Source: a virus (taxonomy: Duplodnaviria; Caudoviricetes). Taken from it: a DNA stretch of 64,000 nucleotides. The stretch is from positions 32,001 to 96,000 of the IMG/VR virus record IMGVR_UViG_3300010262_000138, one strand, 5' to 3'. The notes under the pieces were generated by a model. It had not been told where the DNA came from. It worked only from the letters and a program-made list of their open reading frames with translations, and made no database searches. The stretch's first letter is position 1. The number at the start of each line of letters is the position of its first letter. Below are positions 2,620 through 56,387 of the stretch, in pieces. Position numbers and translations under genes: made by a program.

Positions 2620-3174
2620 CTACCGATATGCCTCATCCAACACAGCACGCGCCTTATTGCCAAACTCCTGATTAAACTTCTCTACGGCACGCTTCATAAA
2701 GTCATCAGGATCTCTATGAGGATTGCTTTCCGTAAAGGTTCCATGACTGTCGTAACCTACAACCGTCTTTCCTCCGGTGTCGTATCCATGAGTATAGAGC
2801 GCCGCAAGGTTATCAACTCCCTCTGGATATGACGCCGGATCTAGGGACTCGCGTTCCATCTCAGAACGAATAAACCCAACATTAAAGCAATACTTTCCGT
2901 CCGCAGTTAATCCCTCATCGCTGATTTCAATATAATCCAGAAACGCTTCGCCGTACCGGTTCTTGATTTCAGATACCTCTGCGCTCAATATAGCCTTCAT
3001 TCTCTGGGCATATTTCTCATCAACGACAATGCGCCCAAAAGGGCGGCCTGCTTTTACAGCTTCCTTTCTTGCCTTTTCCACCTTCTTTTTGCCGGCAGGG
3101 GAGGCCAGAAAAGCGTTAACCTTCTTTTGAATACTGTCAATGCTCATCTTTTTCGGCCCTTTTAGCCAGGTCAA
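2620..3174 (-). CDS. Hypothetical tail-region protein
   Basis: ORF in late operon; likely start at internal MSIDS. Confidence 0.6.
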   Translation of the reverse strand: MTWLKGPKKMSIDSIQKKVNAFLASPAGKKKVEKARKEAVKAGRPFGRIVVDEKYAQRMKAILSAEVSEIKNRYGEAFLDYIEISDEGLTADGKYCFNVGFIRSEMERESLDPASYPEGVDNLAALYTHGYDTGGKTVVGYDSHGTFTESNPHRDPDDFMKRAVEKFNQEFGNKARAVLDEAYR

Positions 3175-3784
3175 TCACATTGTCAGGCTGTTGCTCCAGA
3201 ACGGCATGGGCAAGTTCCTTTTCGTCTAGGGTAGAAAGTCTCATCATGGCCTCCACCATCTTCTGCGGGTCAGCAGGGATCGCCTCGCTTAAACTCTTAA
3301 ATGCGGTAACGGCGCGATCAAGCTGCGCCGAAAGCTCTTCAAGCTTCTTGCGCTGTTCGCTGTAGATCAAAGCATTCTTATCTGCGATTCTCTTTTCAAC
3401 AGACTTATAAATGAGATCAAGCTGTTCCTTAGAAATATACTCGCAGATCTGCTGATAAAGCTCCGTCCCAAACAAAAGAGAGGCAAGCCGGTCCGCGCCC
3501 ATCTCCATTTTAAGATTGGTATACCATGAAATAATCGCCAACCTCATAATCACTTCGCCCACCTCGGGCTGATAAACTTCTTCACCATTATCATTGATCC
3601 CATAATGATTTTCCACAACAGAATCAACCAAACTATACATTGAAGCGAGTGGAATATAAGCTTTTACAGTAATGTCCATCTGACCATCGCCTGTAATGCA
3701 TCCGAATGTATTTGTCTTTTGGCACGAATCCAAAAAGGAATCCAACTTTTTAAAAGAAATTTTTGCTTCATTATTCTTCGCCAT
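3137..3784 (-). CDS. Hypothetical protein, possible tail assembly chaperone
   Basis: Helical, between major tail and tape measure genes. Confidence 0.5.
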   Translation of the reverse strand: MAKNNEAKISFKKLDSFLDSCQKTNTFGCITGDGQMDITVKAYIPLASMYSLVDSVVENHYGINDNGEEVYQPEVGEVIMRLAIISWYTNLKMEMGADRLASLLFGTELYQQICEYISKEQLDLIYKSVEKRIADKNALIYSEQRKKLEELSAQLDRAVTAFKSLSEAIPADPQKMVEAMMRLSTLDEKELAHAVLEQQPDNVIDLAKRAEKDEH

Positions 3785-22918: not shown

Positions 22919-23169
22919 CCTTTATACTCCATGTCACCATAGAGAGTAGACTATCTCTTCACCCCATAGGGTGCCCGGCGCTTCCACGCAGGAATTTCAC
23001 CTGACATGTACTTCCTTTCGGAATAGTCGTTACACGTTCTCAAAAGAGCTTCGCACGGTATTGTCTCGGGAAGAGTTCTACCGTTAGCACAGCAAAGCTG
23101 CACACCCCGCAATTACGGGTTCACCGGGTTTTCACCGCGCCGTTTCCGACGCGGGGGACTGCTTTATCA
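22919..23169 (-). ncRNA. Group I intron (251 nt, no ORF) in RNA polymerase gene
   Basis: P1 GGAU/GUCC with U.G at splice site, core GUGUAACGACUA and AAGAGAUAGUCU, terminal G; splicing restores GADKDGD. Confidence 0.92.
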
Positions 23170-24816
23170 ATCCGCTCCATTCAATGCATGGCAGGTCATA
23201 TCATGGCAGTTTAAAAGCGTAACTGTATTCATATACCGATACCAATAGTTTGCCTCATCAGACCTGTGTATCTTCATCTTCCTGATATTATTGTGATTGC
23301 TCATTGGGGCTCGGAAACATACAACATCATCTGTCCCTTTATCGTGCCAATATCTGTTATATAGCTCCCCGGCTTTCAGCAGCCCTGTCACCGGTAATCC
23401 CCAAATGCTCTGGCACAACGCAATTGGATCGCCGCATATTACAGAGAAGTTACCCTCTACCTTAACCTTCCCGAACTTCGACTCATTTACCCTCTTCTTA
23501 ATCAGCGTCTTAATCTGATTGCGTACAAAGGGGTCTCCAAGCATCCTTCGGTCTGCCTGCAGAGCCGTAACCCAATCAAAATCTCCGCTGAATGCATTCT
23601 TCTCTGTAATACCAGTACCCCGTAAAAAGAGAAGGGTACGGTAATAATCGTCACCCATTGCATCGCTGAGTTCGTGCAGGGTAGGGGAGACCAACTCATT
23701 TATCTCATCATCGCTAAGATCATAGCTCTGAATGAACTGATAATTAAGGCGCCGCTCTTTATCAAGCTCTCTCGAAGTCACTTTTGTAGCTGAAAAGGTA
23801 TATCCATTTACACTGCAATTTTGCAGATAATCATCGATATTTGCGTAAGAATCCCATAATTTCAGCATAGAAGCAGTCAAAATCAGCTCAATTTCGTTGA
23901 TTTTGTGCTTATTTCCCCAGATGTCTACCGCCGCATCCTTTTGTGCTATTGATGACGCAAATTCATGAAAATCAAATGTAAATGCCATACCTTTACAAAA
24001 ACTATTGCGCAGACAAAGCCCAGACGGAAGATAGTCAAGCTGAAGCTCTTCCTGCCATCGCATAGCTAGGGCGGGGGACATCACTCCGTATCCATCGCTA
24101 TCAATCAACTCTACGTCTCCGTTTTTGATAACTTCCATACTTGGTTCTCCGGTAGGTGAGTCCTTCAGAAGAATGTAATCCGAGTTGAAGTGAACAACGC
24201 AGTCGTCTACGACAAGAACCCCTTTTGGTATACTGAGAGGGGTTGATGCGGAACAAATCAAGGCGCGATATGCCTCTAGCTTCGCCGGCACAAACTCTTT
24301 ATCCATGCGTCGCCCATTGTCCGCTCGTCGCCGCAGTTCTTCTAAAAGTTCCGCTCCATTCCTTGTATACTCTGAAATAAATACAACGGTTGAGTTTTTT
24401 ACGCCCCCGGTAGTCCCGACAAATCGTTGGTAGGTCATTCCATTGACCTTAAACCCTTTACACGCCCGGAGAAAATCCTTATTGGAATTACACACCAAGC
24501 AGATGTATTCCGGTACGAATTGGATCTCATTCAATGCAGAATACAGCAATTTTATGCGGTTTTCCACCTCTTTTGAACGTTTTTCTCTCCGCAATTCACG
24601 TAATTCTGTGCGAATTTTCTCGAATTTATCCAGATTTTTATGAAGATCAATACCGGCTATCTGCTCGATCATACGGATACAGGTGCTTTCCGCGAGTGAA
24701 ATCACAGCCCCGGACCTCTTGGCGTCGCGCAGCGAGATATTGTAATCCCAGTTGGACTTCCTCAATTCTTCGGTGGATAACTTCAAAACCTGCCTGAGAT
24801 AAGAATACTGCTTTAT
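23170..24816 (-). CDS. YonO-like single-subunit (RdRP-fold) RNA polymerase, exon 1
   Basis: DSDGYG, LRNSFCKG, LNYQFIQ, FRAP, LNGAD motifs; AAGGAGG SD 8 nt before ATA at 24816; spliced product ~918 aa. Confidence 0.88.
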
Positions 24817-45817: not shown

Positions 45818-46666
45818 ATGCAAAGCACCGCTTTGGCTTTGCCGATAACGGAAAGTCCGCCGGAAATCCGGAGAAAAAAGCTCGTATATCCTTGGGAAGA
45901 CGCCTTTGAAGCCGCTGAAGCGATGAAGGAAATCCAAAAAGGAGTAATGGCCTTCCGAAGCCTTTCGGATATTGATAAGGTGGTCTCCTATCTGCTGTCC
46001 ACAGGCAATATGCGCAACGTCTGCCTCTTTGTAATGGGCTGCAACTTCGGATTCCGTATCTCAGATCTGATGGAATTTACATGGCAGCGCGTATTGAACC
46101 ACGATGGAAGCGTAAAGAAATCCACCTATAAAATTGAGAGAAAGAATCAGCACTCCCGTACCGTACATATCAATGATGCGGCAGGAACGGCGATTGGTCT
46201 TTACTATCAGAGCTTTTCAGAGCCTCCTGATCCGGAATGCGCCATGTTTTCCAGTCAGGGGAAGCGGAAGCGAAATTGCGTCCGCTCCGCAGAGGATGAC
46301 GATGGAGTAATTCATATGTGGACTGAGACGCAGCTAACGAAACAGATGGCTGCCAAGATCATCCGGGAGGCCGCAGACGCGGCGGGAGTTGTGCAGGAAG
46401 GGGACCGCTATTCTACTCACAGCCTGCGTAAAACCTGCTTTACAGCGGCGGCGGGTTTGTATGAGGGGATCGAATTTCCCCATGATCCAACGAGCAACGC
46501 CCTGCGCTTTGCATTTGTCCAGAGCCTTGCGGGGCACAAAAATATGTCCACAACCATGAGATATTTGAACTTTGATGCGATTTTTACCGAAGAAACCTAT
46601 ATGGCGCTCAATCTGGGATTAACGCCGCTCCGAAAGTACGAGAAGCGCAATTCAAATATGGCATAA
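45818..46666 (+). CDS. Tyrosine recombinase/integrase family protein
   Basis: GFRISDL (R), K, HSLRKT (HxxR), AGH, TMRYL (Y): catalytic set intact. Confidence 0.88.
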   Translation: MQSTALALPITESPPEIRRKKLVYPWEDAFEAAEAMKEIQKGVMAFRSLSDIDKVVSYLLSTGNMRNVCLFVMGCNFGFRISDLMEFTWQRVLNHDGSVKKSTYKIERKNQHSRTVHINDAAGTAIGLYYQSFSEPPDPECAMFSSQGKRKRNCVRSAEDDDGVIHMWTETQLTKQMAAKIIREAADAAGVVQEGDRYSTHSLRKTCFTAAAGLYEGIEFPHDPTSNALRFAFVQSLAGHKNMSTTMRYLNFDAIFTEETYMALNLGLTPLRKYEKRNSNMA

Positions 46667-54234: not shown

Positions 54235-54732
54235 ATGACTTACACATCAGCAAGTGCCCACAAACAAATCAAGCTATGGACAGAAGAGCGCGACGCTTTA
54301 ATTCAAAAGGAGCGGGAAATCTGCTCGTATACCTATCAGGCGGGAGAGGAACCGGTAATTGAAAAATACGATTTTGTTAATACGCAATGCCGAATCGCGG
54401 AATATAACAACAAGATTGCCGATCTAAGACACGCTGTTAATCTTTTCAATACAACAACGGTATTGCCCGGACTTGGCTTCACAATTGACGAAGCGCTTGT
54501 AAGAATGTCAATGCTTAACGATCAGAAAAACCGTCTCTCTCGTATGAAAGATATCAGAGAGAAAACGAGACAAACCAACTATAAAGGAATATCAGAATTT
54601 ACAGAACGCAATTTTAATATAGACGATTGTGAAGCTCTGTATCAGAAGGTTTGTAATGAGCTAATTCAAATTCAGCTTTCCATTGATAAGACAAATCTTA
54701 CAGAACAGTTTGATGTTCCTGACGAAGATTAA
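54235..54732 (+). CDS. DIP1984-like long helical-hairpin protein
   Basis: I..LRHAVN.FN.T...TIDEAL...N.....L..IQ..ID..N pattern; AAGGAG SD. Confidence 0.55.
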   Translation: MTYTSASAHKQIKLWTEERDALIQKEREICSYTYQAGEEPVIEKYDFVNTQCRIAEYNNKIADLRHAVNLFNTTTVLPGLGFTIDEALVRMSMLNDQKNRLSRMKDIREKTRQTNYKGISEFTERNFNIDDCEALYQKVCNELIQIQLSIDKTNLTEQFDVPDED

Positions 54733-55227
54733 CCATTGCCATTTGTGAAAATTGAAAAGGGTACGTCGCCGCACCCTTTCAGTCATCAATACCGCAGATG
54801 ACGGAGCGTTTCCCTTACGAACATATAGATCGTAAGTACATCAGCAAGTGCGCCGATCATGCGGAGCACATATAGCATCAGTTCGCCCACTGCATCACTG
54901 CCTTTCATATATATGCTGAAAGTACGGGACCCTCACTCTGAGCAAGTGAGTGTAGTCATATGAGCGGGTTGATGACGCCAAAATTATAATACAGTTTACA
55001 CAAAACGGCAAGCCCTAATATCCGTCCATCCAGTCCACAACTAAACAAAAGAAAATTCTATCAAGTATCTGTAGACGTATCGTTGATGTTATAAGATTAT
55101 TTTGTTATTTATTGTCTGTATGTGCATAAGATGAAGAAGTCTATAGAAGAAATTCTATTTTTAATATCATAATTGGATTGGTAAAAACTTAGGAAAGAGG
55201 TCTTTCCCCGGCAAAAGTAGATGGTTA
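54731..55227 (+). ncRNA. Putative ~500-nt structured RNA
   Basis: ORF-free; 5' TAACCAT-TGCC pairs with 3' GGCA..ATGGTTA; run of 7-8 adjacent hairpins. Confidence 0.5.
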
Positions 55228-55291
55228 TATGCCGGATATCCTGTGCCGCAGCCGAATGATAGGCAGTCAGTTAGTTTGTAAAAGCAGAGTT

Positions 55292-55318
55292 AAAAAGAGG
55301 GCGTGATATTCACGCCCT
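55292..55318 (-). terminator. Intrinsic terminator of the cassette inside the split tRNA
   Basis: AGGGCGTGA/TCACGCCCT stem followed by CTTTTT on minus strand only. Confidence 0.7.
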
Positions 55319-55344
55319 GACGGTTAACGACCCCTCATAAGCAC

Positions 55345-55407
55345 TCAGTTTAACAAGGCGCTATAGGTAGCGATCGTTATATTAACGCAGATATCCATGA
55401 GATCCAT
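55345..55407 (-). CDS. 20-aa hydrophobic peptide MDLMDICVNITIATYSALLN
   Basis: AGGAGGT SD; TTGTAT-16-TGnTATAAT promoter at 55525-55498; terminator downstream. Confidence 0.55.
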   Translation of the reverse strand: MDLMDICVNITIATYSALLN

Positions 55408-55665
55408 GCCAACACCTCCTGTATGTAAACTAAAATGAGAGGTTCTTCCCTTAATAACCTTAACACCTCAATTTAGTAACAAAAGGACCGCTACTTTATT
55501 ATAGCAAATTATTCAATTTATACAATAACAAAACTCTTACAAATTCAACTGATGTATGCTGGTTCGAGTCCAGCCGGCACAACCAACGGAGAATAGGTTG
55601 TCAGTTAGTCATCTCCGGACAAAAACGATTAAGACTGTCTGGCAGGCCGGAAAGACGGCCGATAT

Positions 55666-55740
55666 ACGCCCTTAGCTCAACGGAAGAGCACACTCCTTAT
55701 AAGGGTGAGGTTGTGGGGTCAGAACCCACAAGGCGTACCA
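55666..55740 (+). tRNA. tRNA-Ile(UAU)
   Basis: Cloverleaf; anticodon arm CACTC-CTTATAA-GGGTG; encoded CCA; atypical T loop GTCAGAA and one acceptor mismatch. Confidence 0.8.
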
Positions 55741-55794
55741 GATCATTTTCGTAAATCTACGAAAACTGATAATTAAAAAGAAAGAAGGTAAGTT

Positions 55795-56061
55795 ATGACA
55801 GAACCCCAGAAGTATCAATGTCCCTATTGTAAAACCTGGTATGAAACACCCAGAGAGATGGCCCTTTGTACGATTCGCTGCGATGAAGCGAGAGAGGAGA
55901 TGGAAAAGAGAAAACGAGAATTAGAATTCAAAGAGAAAAAGGCTCAGAGATCTAGTGAACTTAAGCAAAAATATGTAGAATTACAGAATTTGTGTAAGTC
56001 ATATGCACATGATTACGGGACAGATCTTCCTATCACGTTCCCGTTGAAAATTTTTTTCTAA
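55795..56061 (+). CDS. Small Zn-finger/coiled-coil protein
   Basis: YQCPYC...C...C. Confidence 0.6.
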   Translation: MTEPQKYQCPYCKTWYETPREMALCTIRCDEAREEMEKRKRELEFKEKKAQRSSELKQKYVELQNLCKSYAHDYGTDLPITFPLKIFF

Positions 56062-56079
56062 TTAAGATGAGGTAACTAA

Positions 56080-56387
56080 ATGAATATTATTTTTGTTAAT
56101 CATTACACAGAAAAAGACTATTGTTTCGAGGTCCCTGAACTGCTTTTGCCGTACTTAAAAAAGGCATGACAGTCCTTGTTGAAACCAAAAGAGGAGTCAC
56201 TACAGGTATTACGACAACGGATATTATCAGCGGAGATGGCGCCAGAGACATTGCCGTAAAAGCAGGAGCATATTTCCCTCTTGCTAAAGTAATTTCATTT
56301 CTTGATGGCATTCTTATGCAGGTTGCAAAAAATCAGATTGTCAATGTAATAAATAAGGAATTTGAAATCCCCTATATTCCATTTTAA
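56080..56387 (+). CDS. Hypothetical protein, apparently split by a -1 frameshift
   Basis: GAGGT SD and ATG 56080; A-AAA-AAG at 56157-56163 joins to ORF 56166-56387. Confidence 0.5.

Follow-up and report, generated by a model that had tools for sequence, protein, structure and literature searches.

A minus-strand gene with type I toxin hallmarks inside a split tRNA-like gene of a gut phage: a candidate natural tRNA scaffold for an antisense RNA

The type I modules described from Firmicute prophages (txpA/RatA of skin, bsrG/SR4 and yonT/SR6 of SPbeta, Fst/RNAII of par) combine a small hydrophobic peptide with a charged C terminus, a sigma-A promoter and a terminator of their own, a hidden ribosome-binding site, and an antisense strand copied from the same DNA. 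Prophage type I systems are silenced through RNase III (PMC3531473; PMC2887945; PMC8309996). The known type I antitoxins are short RNAs that have their own promoter and overlap one end of the toxin mRNA. We analyzed a 64,000-nt stretch of phage DNA (the window) from a virus record of 112,216 bp (IMGVR_UViG_3300010262_000138, bases 32001-96000), in which a minus-strand gene lies inside a transfer RNA (tRNA)-like gene that is split in its anticodon loop (55242-55585, plus strand). This unit resembles the prophage modules in the peptide, the promoter and terminator, and the predicted hiding of the ribosome-binding site, as well as in its home, probably a temperate phage; an antisense RNA from the same DNA would be a further likeness, and the same dependence on RNase III would be expected. 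It differs from them in sequence and gives no Rfam or Pfam match to any of them. It also differs from the known antitoxins, since no promoter of its own was seen for the candidate antisense RNA, which would cover the gene from end to end, with the tRNA-like halves as its borders.

The topology of the unit is that of the engineered tRNA scaffolds of Ponchon and Dardel, in which a foreign RNA takes the place of the anticodon loop on a lengthened stem, while the tRNA body confers stability and allows processing by RNase P and at the 3' end (PMC3753655). Those scaffolds are laboratory constructs, whereas the phage unit would be a putative scaffold with a degenerate tRNA body (C8, no G18G19). A limited literature search found no natural tRNA-scaffolded antitoxin, no natural counterpart of the engineered scaffolds, and no description of phage tRNAs with short inserts. 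Transfer-messenger RNA (tmRNA), which is of similar size, likewise has tRNA-like acceptor and T-arm ends with CCA that enclose ~300 nt on a long helix. The phage unit differs from it in having no tag reading frame and no pseudoknots and, as an earlier note made from the letters of the window had pointed out, in lacking the G3.U70 pair of the acceptor stem, which is U3-A70 here. ARAGORN -m made no tmRNA call and the best Rfam tmRNA fragment scored 8.3 bits, and tmRNA was rejected on these grounds. The tRNA group I introns of bacteria and phages share with the insert its position and a size range of ~200-300 nt; the phage insert has neither ribozyme core nor terminal G, its junction letters vary, and it holds a complete antisense gene. 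Finally, the insert differs from a homing cassette of the T4 SegB type in that it measures 271 nt, contains no endonuclease, brings no replacement tRNA of the same kind, and is fixed in the population.

Anatomy and fold of the tRNA-like gene

The earlier note had recognized two halves of one tRNA on the plus strand, and both are present at that place. The 5' half (55242-55272) comprises an acceptor strand (55242-48), C8 and A9, the two strands of the D stem (55251-53/55262-64), one strand of the anticodon stem (55266-70), and TT. The 3' half (55549-55585) comprises the second anticodon-stem strand (55549-53), a variable loop GTAT, a T arm (55558-74), the second acceptor strand (55575-81), A73, and an encoded CCA (55583-85). 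All 7 of the 7 acceptor pairs are of the Watson-Crick type (TGTGCCG/CGGCACA). The D stem is a 3-bp helix (GCC/GGC) closing the loop GAAUGAUA, which has a single G and is devoid of G18G19; the anticodon stem is GTCAG/CTGAT, and the T arm is canonical (GCTGG-TTCGAGT-CCAGC), with a loop that follows the consensus.

To find the split gene, ARAGORN needed a lowered threshold, which in the 112-kb genome yields 88 mostly false calls. Once the insert was removed to leave a 7-nt loop, the program called a tRNA at its default threshold. Among the 82 low-threshold intron candidates of the genome, 4 passed this removal test, and the other three are poor, with G.U-rich stems and non-canonical T loops. Aligned with 84 tRNAs from related loci, the tRNA-like gene showed no clear isotype of origin, as Leu, Gly, Gln, and Glu scored alike.

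The ends of the insert pair with each other and prolong the anticodon stem, again as proposed. On the 5' side (55273-55291), AGTTTGTA (55273-80) and AGAGTT (55286-91) pair with 55532-55545; on the 3' side (55532-55548), the strand consists of AACTCT (55532-37), TACAAATT (55538-45), a bulged C55546, and AA. This extension helix includes a wobble pair, G55274.U55544, that forms on the plus strand only. In the minimum free energy fold of the 347-nt plus strand, a cloverleaf is followed by an anticodon stem prolonged by ~16 pairs (z = -6.1), and the RNAalifold consensus of 8 alleles is the same fold. Directly upstream of the 5' end of the tRNA-like gene lies a 35-nt block (55207-55241, plus strand) that contains the hairpin CCGGCA(55208-13)/TGCCGG(55230-35). 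It has no variable site in any allele, and the sequence beyond it is strongly divergent. In a plus-strand precursor, this block would be the leader.

Several classes of insert were considered and rejected. For the insert, Rfam returned nothing at gathering scores and nothing relevant in sensitive mode. For a group I intron, which the earlier note had also discounted, sensitive mode gave no Intron_gpI match in the insert at E<=10, and the insert has no terminal G, the last G lying ~40 nt upstream of the 3' half. The same mode does detect a group I intron elsewhere in the window (22927-23209, minus strand; 37.4 bits against a gathering score of 50, E 5e-8). Because this intron scores below the gathering score, a standard scan of the window lists no intron. 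An intron spliced by proteins was rejected since the helix runs on through the junction, interrupted only by one bulged C, and contains no bulge-helix-bulge, and no match to PF01974, PF01139, or PF09414, which together cover splicing endonuclease, RtcB, and RNA ligase, was found in the ~67% complete record. A canonical decoding tRNA was rejected as well: in all alleles, 271 to 275 nt replace the 7-nt anticodon loop, and no anticodon is conserved.

The minus-strand peptide gene

The insert, 271 nt long in the window and 271 to 275 nt across alleles, contains the whole of the minus-strand unit that the earlier note had described, that is, a promoter, an AGGAGGT motif, an open reading frame (ORF), and a terminator with a T tract on that strand only. 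The promoter (55525-55498) has a -35 box TTGTAT (55525-20), a 16-nt spacer, and a -10 box TATAAT (55503-498) preceded by TG (55506-05), so that it is of the extended -10 type (TGcTATAAT); its score is 11 with the TG extension. The 5' leader of the peptide mRNA (55408-55491, minus strand; length ~70 nt) carries the ribosome-binding site AGGAGGT (55420-55414), which lies 6 nt ahead of the ATG and is invariant among alleles. The intrinsic terminator (55292-55318, minus strand) consists of a hairpin (55318-55298), nearly invariant in the alleles, and a T tract (55297-55292).

The peptide gene itself (55324-55407, minus strand) encodes 20 amino acids in the window (55407-55348, with TGA at 55347-45; ORF 55407-55345). 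The hydrophobic 20-residue ORF of the earlier note is thus present, as a truncated allele of a longer frame. Most alleles have TGG in place of TGA and one extra codon, and end with TAA at 55326-24, which gives a peptide of 28 amino acids. This 28-residue ORF occurs in 8 of the 11 allele types, and the window type carries a TGG>TGA nonsense change at codon 21. The full-length peptide has a 19-residue hydrophobic stretch followed by RRGR or a variant of it. A 3-nt insertion leaves the reading frame intact, and residues are exchanged conservatively (I/V, A/V, D/E, T/A).

In the consensus fold of the mRNA, the 5' end CCUUUUGU pairs with ACAGGAGG and is predicted to hide the ribosome-binding site; this helix is invariant, and an inner hairpin forms between UAAAUUGAGGUG and CCUCUCAUUUUA. 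The leader fold includes five G.U pairs and is thereby specific to the minus-strand RNA. The earlier note had assigned the hiding of the site to an anti-Shine-Dalgarno motif, AACCTC (AACCUC), a role that the predicted fold gives mainly to the 5' end of the mRNA instead.

Judged by its sequence, the unit carries features that mark type I toxin genes, namely, a hydrophobic peptide of fewer than 60 amino acids, a promoter, ribosome-binding site, and terminator of its own, and a ribosome-binding site that is predicted to be hidden. These hallmarks are stronger in other alleles than in the window, the peptide there having 28 residues, a hydrophobic stretch, and a basic tail. A strong ribosome-binding site, a kept frame, a hydrophobic stretch with a basic tail, and a hidden site are typical of type I toxin genes (PMC2887945, PMC8309996).

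In one group of contigs (L185), an insertion sequence element with a DDE (rve-family) transposase lies beside the -35 box (L185 ~3020-3498, equivalent to ~55526 of the window). A second terminator candidate of the minus strand, at 55208-55191, is not conserved among alleles.

Allelic variation and the alternative readings

To compare alleles, we used the contigs of four runs aligned to the region, together with fetched contigs encoding the flanking proteins. About 20 contigs from bovine and pig gut (8 studies) yielded 11 allele types of the 344- to 348-nt unit. The insert is present in 11 of 11 types; the uninterrupted alleles that the earlier note had suggested looking for did not turn up, and the phage population is fixed for the split layout. 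Where an anticodon would be expected, the letters are TTC in the window, CTT in allele X9, TTT in L183, and GTT in L181. Since these letters vary, removal of a fixed insert would not give a decoding tRNA. The intact arms combined with freely changing letters at the anticodon position would fit a scaffold and not a decoding tRNA.

Variable sites are less frequent in the arms (4 of 68) than in the insert (50 of 276; Fisher p = 0.014). In the 5' half, they are 55245 (G>A), 55259, and 55260, the latter two in the D loop. The 3' half is invariant in all alleles except for 55584 C>T in X9 and 55559 C>T in L197, a later singleton that turns a C-G pair of the T stem into U.G. The most distant allele, the L181 type, differs from the window at 26% and 23% of the four-fold degenerate sites of the two flanking genes and at ~10% of the insert, compared with 2 of 68 arm positions. 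The most variable part of the plus-strand fold is the junction helix, with variable sites at 55536, 55541-55544, and 55546. Most changes there keep the pairing (G.U>A-U, G.U>G-C, two U-A>U.G, and G-C>G.U), and the bulged C is lost or changed; against these stand one C×A mismatch and one deleted A. The wobble pairs of the junction work only in plus-strand RNA. The earlier note had asked whether the stems are conserved or covary in relatives while the insert varies. The insert does vary more than the stems; no covariation was seen, and the alleles are too close for it to be measurable.

Downstream of the tRNA-like gene, a conserved 80-nt spacer with two hairpins (55586-55665, plus strand; 3 of 80 positions differ between L181 and the window) leads to an ordinary tRNA-Ile(UAU) (55666-55740, plus strand; Rfam 51.1 bits). 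Between L181 and the window, 7 of the 75 positions of this tRNA have changed, all of them with preservation of the structure and including one compensatory pair. The tRNA-Ile is thus, on the evidence of its substitutions, clearly under structural selection, and it shows how a working tRNA looks at this distance. No promoter-like site was found between the two genes, so that transcription of the plus strand through the unit is likely, and the tRNA-Ile is probably co-transcribed with the tRNA-like gene.

We tentatively favor, with confidence a little short of even, the reading that a type I toxin-like gene is nested antisense in an anticodon-less tRNA-like gene and that the tRNA-like RNA is its antisense partner. 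The sequences show the anatomy, the fixed layout, the conservation pattern, and the strand-specific helices; we infer that the plus-strand RNA exists and is processed, that the peptide is toxic, and that the RNA controls it. The transcript needed for the downstream tRNA-Ile(UAU) would also carry the tRNA-like unit. RNase P would cut at 55242, and 3' maturation would end the RNA at CCA (55585). The RNA released, of ~344 to 348 nt, would consist of a tRNA body on a helix of ~21 bp at its ends and of a middle part that matches the peptide mRNA in perfect complementarity over its full length. By pairing, the two RNAs could block translation or trigger cleavage by RNase III, as in the type I systems of B. 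subtilis prophages. More tentatively still, we suggest that the unit is a natural tRNA scaffold, in which the anticodon-less body would serve as a processing and stability handle for a full-length antisense RNA to the toxin-like mRNA encoded in its own anticodon arm. For this idea of a tRNA chassis for an antitoxin, which the earlier note had put forward, the anatomy, the fixed layout, and the intact arms speak in favor; the missing plus-strand sigma-A promoter and the missing compensatory change in the arms do not.

Should the tRNA-like RNA be expressed and act on the mRNA of the peptide, the unit would be the first natural case, in bacteria or phages, of a tRNA body serving as the chassis of another functional RNA. 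It would also represent a new architecture of type I control, with a stable antitoxin processed by RNase P in place of a short unstable RNA with its own promoter, and a tRNA gene put to new use after an insertion instead of decaying. If the halves are wreckage, the locus would still document how a toxin-like cassette entered a phage tRNA gene, in a clear case that can be dated. The natural nonsense and full-length alleles of the toxin-like gene would be useful for testing.

Several observations weigh against the reading that we favor. The tRNA body does not have the core invariants of a decoding tRNA, having C8 for U8 and no G18G19, and is thus degenerate. The G>A change at 55245, the sole arm-stem substitution common to several alleles, creates an A×C mismatch in the acceptor stem of the L181-type alleles, and no pair of the arms has changed on both sides, so that compensatory change is absent. 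Conservation of the arms is no higher than that of the 80-nt spacer (6 variable sites) or the 35-nt upstream block (0 of 35). Recombination is evident in X9, which within the compared interval (54900-56100) shows 38 differences up to 55584 (5.5%) and one in the next 515 nt, a sharp mosaic boundary located exactly at the 3' end of the tRNA-like gene; because of this, the low variation of the arms may reflect recent exchange and not selection. On the plus strand, no sigma-A promoter was found within 54600-55800, and further upstream there is one weak match (9/12; 54478-54506), located inside the 165-amino-acid gene that precedes the unit. As for the peptide, ~10 amino-acid changes against 3 silent ones across alleles indicate weak coding constraint, and the ORF of the window's own allele is cut by a stop codon. 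No homologue of the peptide was found in Pfam, NCBIfam, or phages (tblastn), nor a paralogue in the genome, and no toxin or antitoxin family (Fst, TxpA, BsrG, RatA, SR4, and others) matched in Pfam, NCBIfam, or Rfam. Lastly, the module was found in one phage lineage only.

The other reading of the earlier note, a mobile mini-cassette that landed in a tRNA, is a possible origin of the unit. The strongest alternative, less likely in our view but a serious one, is that a small promoter-peptide-terminator cassette, either a moron or a type I toxin module, entered the anticodon loop of a phage tRNA (Glu- or Gln-like) and destroyed that gene, whose halves have no function of their own; antisense control would then come from ordinary read-through or would not exist. 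The degenerate body, the acceptor mismatch of one allele group, the missing compensatory change, and the low variation of the adjacent spacer in a mosaic region are all compatible with such a dead tRNA. So are the ends of the insert, which resemble imperfect terminal inverted repeats (TTTGTAA...TTACAAA) flanked by TT, and the ordinary tRNA arrays that the closest relatives have at this position. However, the insert contains no endonuclease or transposase, the cassette has no other copy in the genome, the phage records, GTDB, or IMG/VR beyond one contig of the same phage (L001), and no allele type is uninterrupted. Decay is also not what the substitutions suggest, given that 2 of 68 arm positions changed while the flanking silent sites diverged by ~25% and the insert by ~10%, and that the junction changes mostly keep the plus-strand helix.

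It is improbable that the minus-strand unit has nothing to do with toxicity and instead produces either a small regulatory RNA or a membrane peptide that does no harm (one serving exclusion or lysis timing, for instance), the arms being DNA or RNA signals for neighboring genes. The ~3:1 ratio of amino-acid to silent changes, the stop at codon 21 in the common window-type allele, and the missing family match would agree with such a role, whereas the strong invariant ribosome-binding site at an ideal distance from the ATG, its hiding by the 5' end of the mRNA, the frame kept across a 3-nt insertion, and the 19-residue hydrophobic stretch followed by RRGR argue for a peptide of the type I kind. 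Very improbable, finally, is an intron-bearing tRNA whose insert is removed by itself or by proteins to leave a working 73-nt tRNA, the antisense gene being merely lodged in the intron: group I introns of bacterial tRNAs classically sit in the anticodon loop and the halves splice in silico to a tRNA accepted by ARAGORN, but the insert shows none of the group I or bulge-helix-bulge features sought above, the record encodes none of the splicing proteins sought, and any fixed junction gives anticodons that differ among alleles.

Genomic setting and related phages

The virus record has a G+C content of 43.7% and gene signals of the Firmicute type, and DNA of this phage is present in bovine and pig gut metagenomes from the 8 studies mentioned; none of the sequencing runs listed for it is an RNA run. 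The plus-strand genes on either side of the tRNA-like stretch are 1,062 bp apart. The upstream one is the 165-amino-acid gene, which is DUF6847-like; downstream, a gene of 88 amino acids is followed by a module of an HD-phosphohydrolase, a Sak-type annealase, SSB, and a PD-(D/E)XK exonuclease. The record also encodes a tyrosine recombinase (window 45998-46570) and a 556-amino-acid large serine recombinase (genome C1:111074-111439), because of which the phage is probably temperate; the pair suggests an SPbeta-like lifestyle. A temperate phage fits the favored reading, since temperate phages are the usual home of Bacillus type I toxin genes (PMC3531473; PMC2887945).

A second copy of the cassette was found neither in the genome nor in 50,697 phage records. 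A conserved 33-mer of the cassette is absent from GTDB genomes, and in IMG/VR it occurs only in L001, a near-identical contig of the same phage. Searches of IMG/VR and metagenomes with the HD-domain protein returned one near-identical contig and then matches of <=64% identity, with no split tRNA. Homologues of the 165-amino-acid upstream protein drop to 52% and lie in bacterial chromosomes, and only two clusters of the 88-amino-acid downstream protein were found. We also considered an attP core matching a host tRNA and rejected it: none of 185,579 GTDB species genomes contains the 23-nt 3' half, which is a weak negative, and the presence of a 5' half argues against it.

The nearest phages by HD-domain protein (50 to 64% identity) have ordinary tRNA arrays at the same position, upstream of the HD-domain gene. 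Some related arrays hold tRNA-like genes that ARAGORN misses, with an anticodon region enlarged by 30 to 65 nt and Rfam tRNA scores of 39 to 54 bits. One family with an enlarged arm lies directly upstream of tRNA-Ile(UAU), like the split gene. None of these genes is a sequence homologue of the window arms. These cases suggest, from sequence comparison, that altered anticodon arms recur in the tRNA arrays of related phages.

The family represented by L005:4774-4876 (also in L089, L091:1772-1874, and L093:1774-1876) scores 43 to 49 bits as an Rfam tRNA and is not called by ARAGORN. Its acceptor, D, and T arms are normal, and the T-stem and acceptor changes between alleles keep the pairing. The anticodon arm is replaced by ~41 nt, consisting of an A run and then a 7- to 8-bp hairpin with a GACA-type loop, which reads as an intrinsic terminator on the opposite strand. 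The gene is flanked by tRNA-Gln and tRNA-Ile(UAU) and precedes the HD-domain gene, a position that matches that of the split gene in the window. Anticodon arms with 45 to 65 extra nt were seen in L098:1933-2048 (53.7 bits), L073:665-800 (48.6), and L005:4196-4308 (39.2; all Rfam tRNA); ARAGORN makes no call for these genes, and their inserts are too short for group I introns. Between tRNA genes of one related phage, L073:550-661 gave a sub-threshold match to Rfam drum RNA (33.3 vs 43 bits, E 0.012).

Other features were noted around the unit. The 10-mer GTCAGTTAGT, which covers the anticodon-stem strand of the 5' half (55266-55275), is repeated at 55601-55610, in the loop of a conserved hairpin after the 3' half; the second copy could form an alternative structure with AACTGA(T) in the 3' half, and chance is a possible explanation. 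The tRNA-Ile(UAU) of the window has a C6×A67 acceptor mismatch at 55731, where A is otherwise found only in L164 and L182; G, which restores C-G, is found in the four aligned runs and nearly all fetched contigs. In one study, three contigs (L194, L195, and L196) encode the 165-amino-acid protein only on the assumption that one TAG codon stands for Gln, which could reflect a nonsense allele or recoding. Finally, a 187-nt stretch (54796-54982) is present in window-type alleles and missing from the L162- and L181-type alleles. It holds a 40-amino-acid minus-strand ORF (54908-54786) and lies just downstream of a minus-strand promoter-like site (55011-54983).

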